Origin: Escherichia phage vB_EcoP_ZX6
Length of the DNA stretch: 43,510 nt
Direction: 5' to 3' (one strand)
Sequence record: MZ424864.1
Part shown: positions 25,382-33,805 of the stretch, piece after piece
How positions within the stretch are numbered: the first letter of the stretch is position 1
Layout of the letters: each line of letters starts with the position of its first letter
The notes under the pieces: generated by a model
What the model was told of the DNA's origin: nothing
What the model saw: only the letters and a program-made list of their open reading frames with translations
Databases searched by the model: none
Position numbers and translations under genes: made by a program

Positions 25382-25800
25382 TTAATAGTCTCCCGTGCTT
25401 TGCGTCGTGCCCGGGCCTTGCGGGCCTTGAGCTTCTGTGCCTGTGCTAACTCTTCCGGCGTACGTACTGTGTAATACAGCATATCATAAGGCTCTTTGCG
25501 AAGATATGCCACCATGTTCTCTAGGAATTGCAGGATGCCCTCTTTATCCTGCATCCCGTAACCGGCCCACCTAGCGACCGCGTTATACACCTTGCCCTCT
25601 GCCCCGTTCGCTCCACGCGATAATACTCCACGTATGTGCCCTGTGAGGTGGTCGTGATCGAGTACCATACTACTGGCGCTTCCGCGGGCGGCGGAGGTGT
25701 CTATAGGACGTTTAGTAAGAGCACAAACACCACCCTGCTCTTTTAATATCTTTAAGGATACCGCTCTTACCTGTCCCCTCGTTATTCTACGTGTCGCCAA
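25378..25800 (-). CDS. recombination endonuclease VII (Holliday junction resolvase)
   Basis: 140 aa. ..GGVCALTKRP.. and ..VLDHDHLTGHIRGVLSRGANGAEGKV.. match the T4 endonuclease VII-type H-N-H/zinc motif; basic C-terminal tail. Confidence 0.75.
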   Translation of the reverse strand: MATRRITRGQVRAVSLKILKEQGGVCALTKRPIDTSAARGSASSMVLDHDHLTGHIRGVLSRGANGAEGKVYNAVARWAGYGMQDKEGILQFLENMVAYLRKEPYDMLYYTVRTPEELAQAQKLKARKARARRKARETIK

Positions 25801-26249
25801 GTTACCCCCTGTAGCATCAAGCCTATTGCTGCCTTAGACATACCCAATCTACGCGCGATTGCAGACACACCCCAATCCCTGTCCCCCGGTAAATACATAG
25901 TCCGTAGATAGCGTACAGTATCCGGGCACAATTTAACTTTACAGTGCAGACCGTTGTCCACTTGATGTATTACATTAGAACGCCTAGTGACCCACTCTAG
26001 ATTGCTAGCCCTATTGTTTTCCTTATTCCCATCTATGTGGTTAACTTCTGGAAAATTGTGTGGGTTAGGTACAAAAGCCTCAGCAACAGCCCTATGCACG
26101 TAGACGTTCTTGTATATAGTACTTACATACAGATAACCTCCTCCCTGTCTAGCAGGCTTTAACACTTTGCCGGACGGCCCTTTTATCTCACCGTTAGCAT
26201 TTACCAAGTAATCTTTCCTGCCATTAACTAGCGGAACCCAACTTACCAT
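25782..26249 (-). CDS. HNH homing endonuclease
   Basis: 155 aa. ..HRAVAEAFVPNP..VNHIDGNKENNRASNLEWVT.. is an HNH motif, with an N-terminal NUMOD4-like segment. Confidence 0.7.
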   Translation of the reverse strand: MVSWVPLVNGRKDYLVNANGEIKGPSGKVLKPARQGGGYLYVSTIYKNVYVHRAVAEAFVPNPHNFPEVNHIDGNKENNRASNLEWVTRRSNVIHQVDNGLHCKVKLCPDTVRYLRTMYLPGDRDWGVSAIARRLGMSKAAIGLMLQGVTWRHVE

Positions 26250-26443
26250 ACCTGAATCTCCCCCACTACATCCAGCATAGCATTGTCGTGAATGAGAGAA
26301 TCCAAATGATCAACCGTTCTTCTATGTGTTTTGGGTGCTCGTTCACGCAGCGCATCCAGAATAGTTTCAAGTTCATCGTGTTTCCCCTCGTAGTATAACT
26401 CAATCGCCCGCAGGCTCATTTCCTTCGCAGACATCTTCGCCAT
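26243..26443 (-). CDS. hypothetical protein (~66 aa)
   Basis: Track ORF 26243..26512 overlaps the exonuclease gene; a likely internal start gives MAKMSAKEMSLRAIELYYEG... Helical, function unknown. Confidence 0.4.
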   Translation of the reverse strand: MAKMSAKEMSLRAIELYYEGKHDELETILDALRERAPKTHRRTVDHLDSLIHDNAMLDVVGEIQVW

Positions 26444-27368
26444 TGTCTGGGTGCTCCTGTATCCACTGTATGTGCTGTTTATGGTACTCGTGCAGCGAAT
26501 GCACCCAGTCACGTAGACTGGGAGTAGTCAACAGTGACATCAGATACTGATAAGCAGAATCTGACGGGGAGCGCCGCAGGAACAGGCATTCTGCCTCTGC
26601 GAGTACGTCTTGGTTGTTTCTAGCATAAGCCGCTACAACGAATTCTGCGGCGTCCTGCTCTGAGGTAATAGGGTAGATAGCATCAAAGGCCGTTCGCTTC
26701 CCACAGAGCTTCCCATCAAGCAATGTGATGCCTTTGACGTTATCTGCGTCATCTCCTGCTAGCATTTGCCACCAGAAGAACTTAGTGCCGTGCGCTCGTA
26801 CCGGCATAGCCTGGGTATCATCCCACCTAATCCAGCCGAAGGGGTTATCCAAGGCAGGCCACACGGTTCCGGTCGGGATATCGAACCGGGCCATAGGGCT
26901 GAGCCAGGAGTCCTTGTCCTGCGACATCAGGATTCCCCGGTCCCCGAAGCTGTACGAATCCATTATGAACAGGTCGTCGGCCTCAAAATAGTCACTGCTG
27001 ACTACCTGAATACCCTGCTCAGAATACTGGTCTGGATTTTCAATTAGGTGCCGCTTCAATGGCGCCTTGAGCGGTAGCTCCTGTCGATTAGCGCGCTGCC
27101 CCTGATAGGGCTTAGCCGTAGGCAGGTGCCAGCGCAAACACTTAGCACAGCCAGCGGGCGTCAGGTACGCCACTGCTTCTGAGCAGCCGACCAGGAACAT
27201 GTCCTCAAGCACCAGCTGATAGAAGCGGCGTATCGCTGTATCCAGACGTTTCACTGTAGCGGCGGCTTTGTAAACTGCAAAGTCCGCATCGTACAGCAGA
27301 ATCTTCCCAGAGTTCTGCGGAGCTAACTGCTCTGGGAGCTGGGATAAGTCAACCCCGTTGATAATCAT
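26400..27368 (-). CDS. 5'-3' exonuclease (T7 gp6-like, FEN family)
   Basis: 322 aa; ..KILLYDADFAVYKAA.., ..YFEADDLF.. and ..LAGDDADNVKGI.. are acidic motifs characteristic of T7 gene 6 exonuclease / flap nucleases. Confidence 0.8.
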   Translation of the reverse strand: MIINGVDLSQLPEQLAPQNSGKILLYDADFAVYKAAATVKRLDTAIRRFYQLVLEDMFLVGCSEAVAYLTPAGCAKCLRWHLPTAKPYQGQRANRQELPLKAPLKRHLIENPDQYSEQGIQVVSSDYFEADDLFIMDSYSFGDRGILMSQDKDSWLSPMARFDIPTGTVWPALDNPFGWIRWDDTQAMPVRAHGTKFFWWQMLAGDDADNVKGITLLDGKLCGKRTAFDAIYPITSEQDAAEFVVAAYARNNQDVLAEAECLFLRRSPSDSAYQYLMSLLTTPSLRDWVHSLHEYHKQHIQWIQEHPDNGEDVCEGNEPAGD

Positions 27369-28371: not shown

Positions 28372-29196
28372 TTAGGCTTGAGGTGCAGCGGGCGCTGCTG
28401 GCGCCACAGGAGCCGCAGGGGCCTCTGATGCAGCCGGTGCTACCGGTGCTGCTGGTGCAGCTGGGGCCGCAGGAGCAGCCGGAGCCTGCATAGCTGACGG
28501 ACTCGGAACCGAACTAGCGTTCAGCATAACGTCCAGAGCACTGCCCGGGAAGTCTACAGCTTTATACATGTCCTCCTGAATCCAGTTCTTGCTTTTGCCG
28601 TCGTCGAAGGTGCCTTCGATGTGCAGGCTATCCCAGGTCTCTTTGGTTGGGTTGTTCCACAGGAACAGCTTAATCTCAGAGGCATCCAGCGCAGGCATCT
28701 TGATAGGCTCGCCGGTGTTCGGGTCGAATTTCGGAATCGGGCGGATACCGGACAGGTCCACGATGTTAGACTTCTTGCCCGCGGCGCTGGTGTGCTCATC
28801 AATCGGGAAGGTGAAGGCCTGGCCCAGACGCTGTGCCGCATGCTTAATGCTGTTGTCGTAGTTGAGCTTGTCGAAGAACTTCTTGAAGCCTGCGCGCTCA
28901 AAGTTACTGATAGCCATCGGGTACGGGCGGATACGCTTCACTTCACCGTTAGGGCCAAACACCACAATGCCGATGCGCACGTTAGCCACTGCAGGCTTAC
29001 CGGTAGGCTTACCACCCTTAGTCGGCAGACGCTTACCAATTTCCACATACTCGGTGAAGTAGCCGTAGTATTCACCCTTCGGCAGCAGCACATCCTCATA
29101 CGCACCACCCTGTGCGGTTTCCGTCATATCAACGTCTTGCGTTTCAATCGCAGCAGCTACCAGGGAGTTCAGAGTGTCCAGTGCATTCATAGTCAT
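28372..29196 (-). CDS. hypothetical protein with C-terminal Pro-Ala repeat tail
   Basis: 274 aa. Globular N-terminal region followed by ..PAAPAAPAAPAAPVAPAASEAPAAPVAPAAPAAPQA, encoded by a 9-bp-periodic tandem DNA repeat at about 28380-28470. Confidence 0.55.
   Translation of the reverse strand: MTMNALDTLNSLVAAAIETQDVDMTETAQGGAYEDVLLPKGEYYGYFTEYVEIGKRLPTKGGKPTGKPAVANVRIGIVVFGPNGEVKRIRPYPMAISNFERAGFKKFFDKLNYDNSIKHAAQRLGQAFTFPIDEHTSAAGKKSNIVDLSGIRPIPKFDPNTGEPIKMPALDASEIKLFLWNNPTKETWDSLHIEGTFDDGKSKNWIQEDMYKAVDFPGSALDVMLNASSVPSPSAMQAPAAPAAPAAPAAPVAPAASEAPAAPVAPAAPAAPQA
28380..28470. repeat. 9-bp-periodic GC-rich tandem repeat encoding a (PAA)n tail
   Basis: Plus strand reads ..gcaggggcctctgatgcagccggtgctaccggtgctgctggtgcagctggggccgcaggagcagccggagcc.., repeating units of GCNGGNGCN. 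Confidence 0.6.
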
Positions 29197-29251: not shown

Positions 29252-29461
29252 CTAGCGATTCTTAAGTGCGGACTTAATGCCTGCAGCCGCGGCTGCCGCC
29301 AGGATTGCCAACAGCAAAGCTACACCGCCGTAGAACGGAAGCAGTACCCACCACCAGGACCAGGCGATAACGCCAGTCAGTTTCAAGGTTACAAAGATAA
29401 GGCCCAGTACAGAGCAAATTCCCATTTTCATCATCACCTCTATATTATTTAGAACGACCAA
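29252..29461 (-). CDS. small membrane protein (two predicted transmembrane helices)
   Basis: 69-aa ORF (true start possibly the internal MMKMG): ..ICSVLGLIFVTLKLTGVIAWSWWWVLLPFYGGVALLLAILAAAAAAGI... Lies within the replication module. Confidence 0.45.
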   Translation of the reverse strand: MVVLNNIEVMMKMGICSVLGLIFVTLKLTGVIAWSWWWVLLPFYGGVALLLAILAAAAAAGIKSALKNR

Positions 29462-29948
29462 CCCAACGACCAGCTATCTTACTGCACAATTCCAAGAAGT
29501 CATCGTGGTGCATGTCAGACTTCATGTAGTTGCACGTAGGGCAGCAAGGCACACAGTTGTGTATGTGATAACCTATAGATGAATCCTTTCTATCTATTCC
29601 GTTTGTAGGTACTTCCGACTTGCGAGCCCAGCGACCGCCGCCAATCTCTCGGTACGTACTAGGCGCTGCGCCGCAATAATAGCAGTCCGCACTTACCAAT
29701 GCTTTGGCATCTTCTTTAGTAATGCTTCGGCCTAGTTTGGTGCTGTACTGCCACACCTTGTTAGCGGAGGCTGTCAAATCGGCCAGCTTATTAGGCGGTG
29801 TTCGTCCCTTGTTCTTCTCCCTCTGCCGCAATTTAGTTTGGCATCCACAGTGACCAAGACCGCCGCGCTTACTGGTGTTGAATATCTTAGTTCTGATTGC
29901 CTCAAACTCTTTACCGCAGTAAGGGCAATCCCAGGTATACACCACCAT
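29445..29948 (-). CDS. HNH-type endonuclease with Cys-rich zinc-binding motifs
   Basis: Track ORF 29445..30047 overlaps the upstream gene. Internal ATG at ~29948 gives MVVYTWDCPYCGKEF..HCGC.. and a C-terminal ..GIDRKDSSIGYHIHNCVPCCPTCNYMK.. HNH-like fold. Confidence 0.55.
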   Translation of the reverse strand: MVVYTWDCPYCGKEFEAIRTKIFNTSKRGGLGHCGCQTKLRQREKNKGRTPPNKLADLTASANKVWQYSTKLGRSITKEDAKALVSADCYYCGAAPSTYREIGGGRWARKSEVPTNGIDRKDSSIGYHIHNCVPCCPTCNYMKSDMHHDDFLELCSKIAGRWVGRSK

Positions 29949-29970
29949 ATCCCTAAATCTCTTACCTGTA

Positions 29971-31023
29971 TCAGCCTTTGGTTTTATCTCTCGCACACCA
30001 CCTTCCGGAATCGTCAAGCAGCATTGGGATGATTTGAGGACATCCATCTGTAATCACCATACACCCTAGAATCGGCTTGCTTCTTGACAGCTTTCCGTAA
30101 GCAAACGCCAGACTCTTATTGTCGATTAAACAACCGCAGTGAGCACCAAAGTATAAAGCAGCGCTGCTCGCGGCATACTGTATATCTAACTTCCCATGGA
30201 AGTGTCCAATCACCATAGACTTACGTTCATGGGCTGCGTTGAGCAGCAGGTCCCCAGATACTTGATGTTGGAATCGCACAGTACCCAGCGGAGTATTCAA
30301 ATCCCAAGCATCACCCCAACTCCACCCCGGTGCCCCGTGCTCCGGGAACAGGATGTCCCGGTACTTCTTAATGAACTGTACAGGGAGTCCGTGAGCCTTG
30401 GCCCGGCGGTAGACAAGGGAGCCGTGATTAGAATCACACAGGAGCATGTTAGGAAACAGGTCGTGCAGTTTCTCCAGGCCGAGCTTGGCCTTCTCTAATT
30501 CCACACCAGCGCTGTCTAACTCCGGACTGCTATCGTGAAAGCTAATAGCGTGCCCATCCGTCTCGTCGCCTATCTGCACCACAATGTCTGGGCAGTACTC
30601 ATCCCGCACAGTGCGTAAAAAGTCATACGCGTCCGGATGTGTGTACGGCTCGTGCAAGTCCCCAATAACAAGCACACGCCGACATGTTTCCGGTACAAAG
30701 GTATCCCCAATATCATCCGTTGGGGAAGGTTGAATTAGTTTTCGGGCTTGCATCAGGGCATTGTTAGCCTTTGATTTACTACCATTGTTATCCACGAAGA
30801 TGCTGCGCCAGTAGCGCACAAGCTGGCGGGACACTTGCGGGGCCGGAATACCCATCCCCACAACCGTACGTATTGTCCGAGCACTAATATCTTCGCCAGG
30901 AATCTTACCAAATGCTAGTACATACTCGTACGCCCAGGCAGCTTCGGCGTTACTTTGGAAGCGCTTTAAAATCGCCTGGTGCTGCTCTTTGGTGAATAGT
31001 TTAATCAAACTAATTTTAGCCAA
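29971..31023 (-). CDS. calcineurin-like metallophosphoesterase
   Basis: 350 aa. ..VLVIGDLHEP.., ..VQIGDETDGH.., ..CDSNHG.. and ..GHFH.. match the ordered metal-binding motifs of the PPP/Mre11-type phosphoesterase superfamily. Apparent TTG start preceded by AGAGAGG. Confidence 0.7.
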   Translation of the reverse strand: MAKISLIKLFTKEQHQAILKRFQSNAEAAWAYEYVLAFGKIPGEDISARTIRTVVGMGIPAPQVSRQLVRYWRSIFVDNNGSKSKANNALMQARKLIQPSPTDDIGDTFVPETCRRVLVIGDLHEPYTHPDAYDFLRTVRDEYCPDIVVQIGDETDGHAISFHDSSPELDSAGVELEKAKLGLEKLHDLFPNMLLCDSNHGSLVYRRAKAHGLPVQFIKKYRDILFPEHGAPGWSWGDAWDLNTPLGTVRFQHQVSGDLLLNAAHERKSMVIGHFHGKLDIQYAASSAALYFGAHCGCLIDNKSLAFAYGKLSRSKPILGCMVITDGCPQIIPMLLDDSGRWCARDKTKG

Positions 31024-31184
31024 GGTTGCCTCTCTTGTGTTGTTCCTACTCGTATCACATTAATTCTATGGGAATCACAGAATCAAGCCAGAGTCAACAA
31101 ATAATTTTATTTAATTATTTAGTTGACCCTAGTGTATTTCCATGCTACCCTAACCCCCTACACCACCCAAGGGTACACCTATCA

Positions 31185-31406
31185 CTACTCCTCTATAAAC
31201 TTATACTCCCCAGGAAAGAAAGTGACGCCGTCCCCCGGTCTACTTACTACCAGTCCAGGGTAGCTTAGTTCTATCTCCCCAGTAACAGGGTCGAAGAATA
31301 GAACCGTGTGTCTTGTACCTGGGGTGAAGTAGGCTGCATACCGCGGGTCTATCGGCTCAGGTCCTAGGTCCATCAACTCCACAGTACTACCAGACTTTAT
31401 ACTCAT
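31185..31406 (-). CDS. hypothetical protein (73 aa)
   Basis: Small ORF whose start overlaps the DNA polymerase stop; Pro/Gly-rich. Confidence 0.45.
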   Translation of the reverse strand: MSIKSGSTVELMDLGPEPIDPRYAAYFTPGTRHTVLFFDPVTGEIELSYPGLVVSRPGDGVTFFPGEYKFIEE

Positions 31407-33805
31407 TCAACCTTCTCCTTACTGTACATGCTCGTACCCATCTCAGCCTCTGCTGGGAACGGGACCTCACCAATGATGCCATAGTTAGGCCAGAGCTGGT
31501 GGATACGTTTAGGTGCGTCCTCCATGCACTGCTTAACCAACAGGCTCGCCTCACGTCCAACCTCCGGGTTGGCGCTGTCCAGATACAACGCATCGTGCAC
31601 GTTCGTAATCAGGCACACCTGATTGTCGAACCAGTCACGGGCCAGGAGGGCACGGAGAACCATACCGGCAGCCACTGCCATCAGGAAGAATGCTTCCCCC
31701 TGGCACCAGTAGTTAGCCATCTCGGTTTCCTTGTAGTCCATGACCTTCTGCTTACGCTGCCCAGGCACAACCTCTTTCCACTGCTCCTTCTGACGGAAGC
31801 TATAGCGAGCACCTGCTGGGCTGGTCCAAGTCCCGATGCGGTAGATGCGGTAACTGCCATCGTCAGCTTGTTCCCGGTACATGCGCCCCTCTGCACCAGT
31901 ACGCTCTACTTCTTCCTTGACAACAGCGCGGAAGCCAATTGTTTGCGGGAACAGCGCAGCCTCGTTGTCCAAGAAAGCCTGTGCGAATTCCACCGTACAT
32001 CCAGTAGCAAACGCAATCCCCTTAGCCGTAGCGCCATACTGGGCTGCAAAGCTAGGAGCCTTAATACCTGTGCGCATTGCCTTCCAAAGCGGATGCAGCT
32101 CGTGCTTCTTGTTGTGGCAGCGCTCATATACTTCTTCATACGGCAGTTCCTCACGGAAAGCTAGGCGGTAACAGTGCATATCCGTACCACTCTGCAGCAG
32201 TCCCAGCAGTTTCTTGTCACCAGTGTGGACGCAGGACATAACTACTTCCAGTGCCGAGTAGTCAACCTCAGTGATACGTCCGTTGTCCCCGAATCTACTG
32301 GTGAACACCTGCTTCACCTTGGATTTAGCCACACCGTCGCCATCCTCATCCGGGCGGGGTAGGTTCTGCAGGTTCGGGTTAGAGCTACTCAAGCGCCCGG
32401 TTACGGTGGCGCAAGTATTCAGCCGGTGGTGAATGATGCCGGAACCATCGGGACGCTCCGGGATTACGTACTGCAGCATCCCCTTCCGCTCTTTGACCTT
32501 ACCTTCTGCGTCAAGGACCTCTCGCAAATAGTAAGTGCCGGTATCCTTCTCCAGCGCCGCCAGCTCGTTCACCAACTTACAGAACTCGAACCCTTGGCGA
32601 GCCAGCGCCTCCATTGCGTCAGTGCTGGTGCTGTATACTGGCGTACCGTCCTGCAGGGTGCGCGCCTGTCGGAACTCTCCGCGCTCTGCGTACTTCTCCC
32701 GGATAACTTCCGGAAGCTCCTGGATGTTCACCAGGCCCGGGCAGAAGTAAAGGTCGTCTTCCCATTTAAGTTTCTCTTCCTCGGTATCGAGGCGGAATAC
32801 TTTGGGGAGCCCCTTGTTCTTACCCGCACGATATGTCACTACACGCCACCATCCGCCTTCCGTTTGAAGTTCTTGCATGTGCGTGTCGTGTACAGGTATA
32901 TAGGTGTGCGCGCCCTCTTCGTCCTCGTACTTATAGAAGTCGGCCTTGACGTACTGCGGCGGGTCATATGGCACCTTCTTGCGGTACTTGATAGGCCCGC
33001 CGTACACCAGTGCTGACATATGGAAGTCCGACCCGAAGTTGAAGTCAAGAGTCTCCGGCAAGTCCTTCGGGATGTACTGCTGCAGCTCCTGCTTAATCTC
33101 ACGGATACGCTGCTCCTGCTCCTCCTGGTTCTTGCGTGCAATTGGCATATTAACGAACAGGCCGAACCATTGACAATAGCTCCAAGCTAGTGCTGCCTCC
33201 ATTCGTTCATAGACATACTGCATCTGATTGCGTTGGGCGAATAGGGCGCATTGCCCATAGAAGCACAGCCCGGTATTTGGCACGTCACCGTTGACGAGGT
33301 AATCGTGAAGCAGGTACGGATCAATTTCGGAAGTACGCTTCCCTTGCTCCCATAGTATCTTCACACCATCAACTTTGTGCTGGCCACCCCATTTTGGGGC
33401 GGTCTCATCTAACCCAGGATACATCTCCTGGAAATCTGAGGCTATGTACTGCCCATGCTGCGTACAGTATACCCGGCCGCCGCGCTTTAGGAAGTCCTCG
33501 AAATGTTTCCGCTGGTAGGATAAGAACCAGGACACCTCGAAGCTGCTGTTGTGCGCGACTATCATAGTGCAGTGTTCTGGTATGGAAAACCACCTGTGGG
33601 GACCTGCGTTGTCTTCCAGGAACTCGGCCTTGCTGTTGAAGCGGATACTAAATACGTCCCCCATATGCAACTGCCCGGCGTCATCTACTGTGTCTATGCG
33701 ATATGCGCTTTCTACAACATAGTTATCGGGACAGTACGGGGATGCCACGTTGCCGTAATACTCAAAGTTCTCGACCTCTAAATCCACTATCATAATCTGG
33801 TACAT
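31403..33805 (-). CDS. DNA polymerase, family A, with 3'-5' exonuclease domain
   Basis: 800 aa. Exo motif MIVDLEVEN; pol motif A ..EVDYSALEVV..; motif B ..RTGIKAPSFAAQYGATAKG..; motif C ..ITNVHDALYL... Confidence 0.9.
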   Translation of the reverse strand: MYQIMIVDLEVENFEYYGNVASPYCPDNYVVESAYRIDTVDDAGQLHMGDVFSIRFNSKAEFLEDNAGPHRWFSIPEHCTMIVAHNSSFEVSWFLSYQRKHFEDFLKRGGRVYCTQHGQYIASDFQEMYPGLDETAPKWGGQHKVDGVKILWEQGKRTSEIDPYLLHDYLVNGDVPNTGLCFYGQCALFAQRNQMQYVYERMEAALAWSYCQWFGLFVNMPIARKNQEEQEQRIREIKQELQQYIPKDLPETLDFNFGSDFHMSALVYGGPIKYRKKVPYDPPQYVKADFYKYEDEEGAHTYIPVHDTHMQELQTEGGWWRVVTYRAGKNKGLPKVFRLDTEEEKLKWEDDLYFCPGLVNIQELPEVIREKYAERGEFRQARTLQDGTPVYSTSTDAMEALARQGFEFCKLVNELAALEKDTGTYYLREVLDAEGKVKERKGMLQYVIPERPDGSGIIHHRLNTCATVTGRLSSSNPNLQNLPRPDEDGDGVAKSKVKQVFTSRFGDNGRITEVDYSALEVVMSCVHTGDKKLLGLLQSGTDMHCYRLAFREELPYEEVYERCHNKKHELHPLWKAMRTGIKAPSFAAQYGATAKGIAFATGCTVEFAQAFLDNEAALFPQTIGFRAVVKEEVERTGAEGRMYREQADDGSYRIYRIGTWTSPAGARYSFRQKEQWKEVVPGQRKQKVMDYKETEMANYWCQGEAFFLMAVAAGMVLRALLARDWFDNQVCLITNVHDALYLDSANPEVGREASLLVKQCMEDAPKRIHQLWPNYGIIGEVPFPAEAEMGTSMYSKEKVE

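Follow-up and report, generated by a model that had tools for sequence, protein, structure and literature searches.

Positions 29445–31023 of the genome of Escherichia phage vB_EcoP_ZX6 (MZ424864.1; 43,510 nucleotides, the whole of which is referred to here as the window) contain exactly two open reading frames (ORFs), both on the minus strand. The first, 31023..29971, encodes a metallophosphoesterase (MPE), and the second, 30047..29445 in its longest reading (200 amino acids, aa), encodes a cysteine-rich HNH protein (Table 1). The window is a Drulisvirus genome (Autographiviridae, Slopekvirinae; a KP34-like Klebsiella podophage), and the segment is 82%–96% identical to many Klebsiella Drulisvirus phages, whose gene order it likewise matches. 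All genes of the MPE region lie on the minus strand. The initial annotation of this locus had placed the two genes inside the replication module, and they do lie between the genes for a family-A DNA polymerase and a 5'-3' exonuclease, as expected from Drulisvirus gene order. We consider it probable that a free-standing homing endonuclease gene (HEG) has invaded the very 3' end of a conserved phage MPE gene, whose product would be a phosphodiesterase of DNA or nucleotides.

Table 1. Genes and sequence features at and around the MPE locus of the window (CDS, coding sequence; SD, Shine-Dalgarno)
Feature	Position	Strand	Description
Family-A DNA polymerase	33805..31403	-	Upstream of MPE; a small conserved ORF is also upstream
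Sigma-70-like promoter candidate	31114..31143	-	Exact 30-nt match to the KpV74 'promoter' feature
SD region AAGAGAGGCAACC	31024..31036	-	Shared without change by the window and four other Drulisvirus genomes
MPE CDS	29971..31023	-	350 aa; TTG start, TGA stop
MPE N-terminal helical domain	30688..31023	-	Residues 1-112; variable loop ~39-65
Native catalytic MPE domain	29998..30687	-	Residues 113-342; ends at the conserved Gly-Arg-Trp
Left Gly-Arg-Trp codons GGAAGGTGG	29998..30006	-	Recoded relative to empty sites; hold SD-like AGGTGG
Homing endonuclease cassette (predicted)	29463..29997	-	535 bp; starts directly behind the left Trp codon and ends with the right Gly-Arg-Trp codons
Last 8 MPE codons and stop	29971..29997	-	Contributed by the inserted element
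PacI-like HNH (His-Me finger) homing endonuclease CDS (predicted)	29445..29996	-	183 aa from GTG 29996
Right Gly-Arg-Trp codons GGTCGTTGG	29463..29471	-	Native copy; matches the KpV74 empty site exactly
Displaced native MPE tail VGRSK and stop	29445..29462	-	Identical to the KpV74 empty-site GTTGGTCGTTCTAAATAA; now the HNH C-terminus
Small Trp-rich membrane protein	29252..29434	-	60 aa; two hydrophobic segments (hydropathy profile)
5'-3' exonuclease	27368..26400	-	Farther downstream of MPE

Insertion of an endonuclease gene at the 3' end of the MPE gene

The insertion was mapped by BLAST break points against the HEG-less genomes KpV74 and KPPK108.2, in which no gene lies between MPE and the small membrane protein, together with direct reading of the junctions. 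The empty site reads GGT CGT TGG GTT GGT CGT TCT AAA TAA (GRWVGRSK and stop), and the junction point in the KpV74 type falls between GGNCGNTGG and GTTGG. At the left junction of the window, GGA AGG TGG is followed directly by TGT GCG AGA GAT AAA ACC AAA GGC TGA, such that MPE now ends in GRW-CARDKTKG; at the right junction, ATA GCT GGT CGT TGG is followed by the native GTT GGT CGT TCT AAA TAA. The cassette is thus flanked by two Gly-Arg-Trp copies that are coded differently, and it supplies both a new eight-residue MPE tail with its stop codon and, in a different frame, the start of the HNH protein. Because the HNH frame continues past the right junction and reads the former MPE tail and stop, the HNH protein ends in IAGRWVGRSK, and most HNH homologues from other phages end in GRWxGRxx. 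Both the adjacency of the two genes and the overlap of their ORFs (26–77 nt, depending on the HNH start used) follow from the insertion of the HNH gene into the 3' end of the MPE gene. W342, the last Trp before the left junction, is conserved in more than 90% of the MPE family, and nothing is conserved after it, so the cassette directly follows the last codon under constraint and does not damage the enzyme.

The site was found in three states. Compared with 642 MPE-bearing records overall, the 3' site is uninterrupted in at least 124, carries an HNH_3 gene of the KP34 gp24 type in 30, and holds the PacI-like gene in about 16 (identity of at least 60%). In phage IME308, where the junction was read to the codon, the unrelated HNH_3-type gene follows the same Trp codon, and MPE continues from GRW into RSRVQP and a stop. 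The junction of the PacI-like gene was also read in Dickeya phage BF25/12 (Corkvirinae), likewise after Gly-Arg-Trp, and a PacI-like gene adjoins MPE in E. coli phage PGT2. The combination of three states at one site, a sporadic spread, and the use of the same site across genera is characteristic of a free-standing homing endonuclease, and the 3' end of MPE is a hot spot common to two HEG families. The left-junction Arg codon is AGG in all four genomes compared that carry the PacI-like HEG and CGN in the four others (three empty, one with the other HEG), from which we infer that the AGG recoding belongs to the element.

The HNH_3-type gene of IME308 (3277-3669) has an AP2-like C-terminal part, and the same gene is found as KP34 gp24 and in 28 other records. 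A third HNH gene lies directly upstream of MPE in IME308.

These observations bear on two other ways of reading the neighbourhood. The initial annotation had described the phosphoesterase and the HNH nuclease as a pair, and a functional two-nuclease pair or operon, acting in replication or in host DNA degradation, would be in keeping with their being adjacent, overlapping, and co-oriented in the window and identically arranged in about 16 phage genomes of three genera. However, most MPE-bearing relatives are without the HNH gene, an unrelated HNH gene occupies the same site in 30 records, and the junctions are those of a clean insertion with target-codon duplication; the pairing therefore gave way to an optional insertion, and we assign the two-nuclease module a very small chance of being correct. 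Alternatively, the HNH gene may have been domesticated as a restriction-like nuclease against host DNA or as an accessory factor in replication or packaging. PacI itself is a restriction enzyme, viral members of its group have been speculated to be 'viral restrictases' (PMC5714182), and the HNH ORF is intact, with 57%–99% identity across genera. Domestication nevertheless appears improbable for a gene that is patchily distributed within one genus, shares its site by turns with an unrelated HEG, and is inserted at the same place in different genera.

Under the invasion reading, the HNH enzyme would be expected to attack HEG-less alleles in co-infecting relatives, with cleavage close to the Gly-Arg-Trp codons, and recombinational repair would then copy the cassette into the cut allele. 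The recoding of the left Arg codon to AGG would shield the occupied allele from cleavage and, given the SD-like motif it creates, may also provide the HNH gene with a ribosome-binding site. Free-standing HEGs of T-odd, T7-like, and T4-like phages, such as KP34 gp24, T5 HegG, and the T4 Mob and Seg genes, resemble the cassette in being optional, sporadic, present at the same site across genera, and alternating with an unrelated HEG. The cassette differs from them in that it lies inside a coding sequence, after its last conserved codon, rather than between genes, and in that it gives the host gene a new tail and stop while taking over the original ones.

The inserted gene encodes a PacI-like HNH protein

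The HNH ORF matched PHROG 1035 ('endonuclease VII', E = 1.8e-25) as well as several HNH PHROGs, and had no Pfam HNH match at E <= 0.1 (PF01844, PF13392, and others), which fits a member of the divergent PacI group. A profile of the HNH family aligned with PacI (3ldy, E = 3.3e-6) over the pattern C-x2-C...G-I-D-R-x-D-S-x2-G-Y-x3-N...C-x2-C-N-x2-K-S. PacI defines a group of His-Me finger nucleases without a general-base His, in which a Tyr takes its role; one metal ion is bound by an Asp and an Asn, and the core lies between Cys4 zinc sites (PMC5714182, PMC4081073). The HNH protein has this core of a beta-beta-alpha-metal fold with Asp and Asn ligands and a flanking Cys4 zinc site. The core Cys pairs are C105, C108, C152, and C155 (183-aa numbering), and the PacI equivalents in between are D135, R136 in the canonical His position, the invariant Y143, and N156. 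Y143 aligns with a PacI Tyr that may be the catalytic one. The HNH fold with additional CxxC pairs that had been noticed from the sequence is hence recovered, strictly as the His-less PacI-type variant. If its mechanism is that of PacI, a single metal ion would be held by Asp135 and Asn156, Y143 would replace the missing general-base His, and the two Cys clusters would hold structural zinc.

The likeness to PacI (His-Me finger group 20) thus comprises the Asp and Asn ligands, Cys4 zinc, an aligned Tyr, and the replacement of the general-base His by Arg. Unlike PacI, the protein of the window is encoded by a phage insertion within a conserved gene, and it carries an extra N-terminal CPYC...HCGC zinc ribbon and a helical linker. 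Three starts were considered for the HNH gene. GTG 29996 agrees with the N-termini of homologues and with the call for a cluster of 142 sequences that is 99% identical; the alternatives are ATG 30047 (200 aa) and ATG 29948 (167 aa).

MPE is an intact member of a phage-specific clade

The phosphoesterase had been described at the outset as calcineurin-like, and every motif quoted in support was found: GDLHE (residues 121-125), GDETDGH (152-158), SNHG (198-201), and GHFH (273-276), with motif IV represented by H253. The superfamily signature of DxH, GDxxD, (G)NH(D/E), H, and GHxH, five motifs that supply seven metal and catalytic residues, is thereby covered. In an alignment of 84 diverse homologues (34%–78% identity), D153, N199, H200, H253, H274, and H276 were invariant, and D122, H124, and D156 were kept in more than 90%, implying that the binuclear-metal active site is intact. 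The alpha/beta sandwich fold of the calcineurin-like superfamily is also present.

MPE matched PHROG 221 ('metallo-phosphoesterase') at E = 1.8e-105, with residues 1-347 aligned to profile positions 14-360 of 367. This family (KP34, KpV74, SP6/K1E/K1-5, Pectobacterium CB5_36) shares the same two-domain layout over its full length and, within Drulisvirus, the same synteny and TTG start, with 65%–97% identity to database proteins; only the tail differs, the native VGRSK having been replaced by CARDKTKG through the insertion. An exhaustive HMMER search returned 1591 representatives, most of which are ~235 aa long and align to residues 115-345, such that the first 112 residues are an add-on of the podophage group. 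Among isolated phages, the catalytic domain was found in the 642 records mentioned above, almost all of them Autographiviridae with genomes of 41–47 kb, including Drulisvirus, Phimunavirus, Ahphunavirus, and relatives of SP6/K1E/K1-5.

General-purpose models were less informative. Pfam Metallophos (PF00149) matched MPE marginally (21.8 bits against a cut-off of 21.5, N-terminal motifs only) and was matched by 51 of the 84 relatives, and the Pfam search gave no match to Metallophos_2 (PF12850). MPE matched no NCBIfam or PADLOC model, and the member names of MPE clusters included none that were informative. Searches of PDB sequences by phmmer and by profile returned only lambda phosphatase (1g5b), below significance. 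In structural comparison the nearest folds were MJ0936 (15.6), PolD DP1 (15.5, 202 residues aligned), and YfcE (15.2), followed at greater distance by LpxH (13.3), Vps29 (about 13), SbcD (12.7), Mre11 (12.3), PP5 (11.7), and lambda phosphatase (10.5). The longest structural alignment was with PolD DP1, a proofreading exonuclease. MPE differs from MJ0936/YfcE (Metallophos_2) and PolD DP1 in sharing only 11%–13% identity with them, in its extra N-terminal helical domain, where the MJ0936/YfcE type is a compact single domain of about 165–185 aa, in having SNHG for GNxD, and in a family-specific insert after motif II (HAISFHDSxPxLDSAGxELE). It is a phage-specific clade of its own within the calcineurin-like superfamily, with MJ0936/YfcE and PolD DP1 as its nearest folds.

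The initial annotation had proposed profile searches to discriminate between Mre11/SbcD and PPP phosphatases, and MPE turned out to be neither, given that it matched no subfamily model and that its motifs differ from those of both. An orthologue of Mre11/SbcD would process DNA ends for recombination-dependent replication. We see hardly any prospect of this, since Pfam and NCBIfam gave no such subfamily match, motif III is SNHG and not GNHD, MPE ends ~70 residues past motif V without a capping domain, and the full annotation of the close relative VLCpiA1m lists no Rad50/SbcC-like (SMC-like) ATPase. A Ser/Thr/Tyr protein phosphatase resembling that of lambda, acting on host or phage proteins, also has little likelihood. 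It is suggested by the single PDB match of the family profile (1g5b, motifs I-III, E = 1.5, not significant) and by one relative annotated as 'protein phosphatase 2a-like', but the PPP signatures GDxHG, GDxVDRG, and GNHE are all violated.

Further variation was observed among MPE homologues. Three of them (P0125, P0284, and P0166; 586–637 aa) have an intein-like insert of ~290 aa inside catalytic motif II, in the context GDE/C...GN/CDxH (slashes mark the splice junctions) with Cys at both junctions; the equivalent place in the window is E154/T155 (~30562/30561). A 637-aa phosphoesterase of Proteus phage RS8pmA, matched in BFVD, may carry the same insert. In Escherichia phage K1E the MPE homologue appears to be spread over two annotated proteins in BFVD, A0A2I4Q1Y4 (237 aa) and A0A2I4Q1Z7 (104 aa), a split that may reflect an insertion or a frameshift.

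Start codon, upstream region, and N-terminal domain of MPE

The TTG at 31023 is the first possible start in the MPE ORF and stands 5 nt after a GAGAGG SD. Five Drulisvirus genomes share the TTG and the 45 nt upstream of it almost unchanged (at least 43 of 45 bases identical), conservation of the N-terminal residues MAKISLIKLFTKEQH extends across genera, and the homologues of Dickeya phage BF25/12 and Aeromonas phage Ahp1 have ATG at the same aligned position. Together these features indicate that the start is correctly placed and that TTG, which had been flagged as unusual, is real and a conserved peculiarity of this lineage.

Upstream of MPE, a consensus scan gave a promoter candidate of the form TGGAAA-17-AATAAT. 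The KpV74-type 'promoter' to which it corresponds occurs once in the window, and it is therefore not a repeated promoter consensus of a phage RNA polymerase. An AT-rich imperfect palindrome (AAATAATTAAATAAAATTATTT, ~31095-31125, minus strand) lies within the 160-nt gap upstream of MPE, overlapping the 3' end of the promoter candidate and extending just beyond it. The leader as far as the TTG is nearly invariant in Drulisviruses, and the palindrome may be a regulatory element.

In the structure model, the N-terminal domain consists of helices at residues 12-21, 25-38, 48-55, 66-78, and 83-97, and R66, Q67, V69, W72, and R73 are invariant across 15 relatives. Other members of the family carry HTH_psq, HTH_8, Sigma70_r4_2, or HTH_23 at the N-terminal position, and the conserved helix VSRQLVRYWRSIF looks like the recognition helix of a helix-turn-helix (HTH) domain, a reading of the window's N-terminus whose basis is relatives and helix pattern only.

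The annotation of KPPK108.2 divides the MPE region into two abutting CDSs, 2756-3034 (93 aa) and 1761-2756 (332 aa). The DNA alignment of this genome with the window breaks in the N-terminal variable loop of MPE, which suggests an indel or a replacement in the N-terminal domain.

Predicted substrate and role of MPE

MPE is always found among genes for a polymerase, an exonuclease, endonuclease VII, and a nucleotide kinase, which argues for a role in DNA or nucleotide metabolism. In BF25/12 (Corkvirinae) and Ahp1 (Melnykvirinae) it is also near a gene for a stand-alone HAD_PNKP 3'-phosphatase; the HNH gene lies between MPE and HAD_PNKP in BF25/12, and a dNMP (deoxynucleoside monophosphate) kinase follows in Ahp1. 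Inteins are typical of replication, repair, and nucleotide-metabolism enzymes. The HAD_PNKP neighbour, the N-terminal HTH domains in the family, the inteins in motif II, and the alignment with PolD DP1 point the same way. We therefore give close to, though somewhat short of, an even chance to MPE being an Mn2+/Fe2+-type phosphodiesterase whose substrate is DNA or nucleotides derived from it, that serves the breakdown of host DNA or the processing of ends, and that would be tethered by its HTH-like N-terminal domain.

Two phage enzymes offer analogies for such a role without being demonstrable members of the same subfamily. T5 A1, a predicted metallophosphatase, is both required and sufficient for the degradation of host DNA (bioRxiv 10.64898/2026.04.02.716235), and A10ZJ24 gp48 of a mycobacteriophage has phosphodiesterase activity, disrupts host genomic DNA, and counters defence (PMC12287305). 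Like MPE, T5 A1 is a phage MPE with N-terminal HTH domains in its relatives and Ser rather than Gly before the NH of motif III, and its reported structural neighbours are the same, namely double-strand-break repair nucleases and proofreading subunits of polymerases. It differs in its length (556 aa) and its large extra N-terminal region, and the two aligned at only 4.7% probability in a single-sequence hhalign comparison. The cluster-A mycobacteriophage MPE (A10ZJ24 gp48) is a phage MPE with all five motifs, but belongs to another phage group and host, and tblastn returned no Mycobacterium phage matches. The A1 gene of T5 (1706-3670) likewise has a neighbour, T5.005, whose small product has two transmembrane segments. 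T5.005 has no detectable similarity to the small membrane protein of the window, and the parallel is best taken as a coincidence.

By analogy with these enzymes, a more specific proposal can be made, which we put forward as a possibility against which the balance currently leans. In Autographiviridae, the MPE of PHROG 221 would correspond to T5 A1 as a DNase that is tethered by its HTH, degrades or processes host DNA, and might thereby feed salvage through the adjacent 3'-phosphatase and nucleotide kinase or silence defences. Its 3' end would be a homing hot spot for HEGs that bring a new tail for the host gene and embed a ribosome-binding site.

A different substrate class has to be weighed at this point. 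MPE could be a phosphodiesterase of small-molecule nucleotides (cyclic nucleotides or oligonucleotides, Ap4A, alarmones) that serves counter-defence or metabolic reprogramming. This rival has to be taken seriously, because MJ0936 and YfcE head the fold matches and because the contexts of stand-alone homologues are uninformative. We hold it to be rather unlikely, as MPE matched none of the PADLOC models, has an HTH-type N-terminal extension and DNA-metabolism neighbours, and has homologues with inteins. To our knowledge, there is no anti-CBASS or anti-Pycsar enzyme with an MPE fold.

Several points weigh against our interpretation of the locus as a DNA- or nucleotide-directed MPE gene invaded by an HEG. 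For MPE, the substrate is deduced from genomic context and fold neighbours only, and stand-alone homologues occur in varied phage contexts with no consistent neighbours (three metagenomic contigs). In profile-profile comparison with the T5 A1 family, hhalign gave a probability of 11% (E = 0.0026, 207 columns, motifs in register), and tblastn with MPE as the query retrieved neither T5 A1 nor any mycobacteriophage MPE. The N-terminus of the window's MPE has no Pfam HTH match even at E <= 10. The HNH protein, for its part, has more than one plausible start codon and a structure model of low quality (predicted local distance difference test, pLDDT, 68).

Neighbouring genes

The small membrane protein lies directly downstream of MPE in all relatives by synteny, and its two hydrophobic segments agree with the two-transmembrane-segment protein that had been noted at this position. 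It matched PHROG 1374 (E = 9e-22). The realistic start is ATG 29434 or 29431, preceded by a GAGGTG SD.

Farther downstream of MPE are genes for a PHROG 862 protein, the 5'-3' exonuclease, an HNH_3 protein, endonuclease VII, and a DUF3310 nucleotide kinase. The PHROG 862 protein (28372-29196, minus strand) is labelled 'large tegument protein' in other records, and its C-terminal end (~28372-28480) is a low-complexity Pro/Ala repeat, PAAPAAPAAPAAPVAPAASEAPAAPVAPAAPAAPQA. The HNH_3 gene (25782-26249, minus strand; Pfam HNH_3, PHROG 59), between the exonuclease and endonuclease VII genes, is a second gene of homing-endonuclease type in the window. VLCpiA1m has its counterpart at the same place and another in the structural module.

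Implications for KP34-like phages

Both the MPE and the HEG insertion are of known kinds, and nothing about them is conceptually new; the two genes are neighbours by invasion and not partners, an ordinary situation for this phage group. KP34-like Klebsiella phages are widely used phage-therapy candidates, and MPE is a conserved gene of their replication module. Knowing that it is catalytically intact by sequence, phage-specific, and neither an Mre11 nor a PPP enzyme narrows the experiments worth doing. Likewise, recognizing the HNH gene as a mobile insertion avoids its mis-annotation, as it is currently labelled 'endonuclease VII' or taken for part of a two-nuclease module, and explains why the 3' ends of MPE and the calls of neighbouring ORFs differ among near-identical genomes. 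The three-state site (empty, PacI-like HEG, or HNH_3-type HEG) is a natural system for studying competition between homing endonucleases. If the proposed correspondence with T5 A1 were true, a gene carried by more than 600 sequenced phages of therapeutic type would acquire an assigned function.

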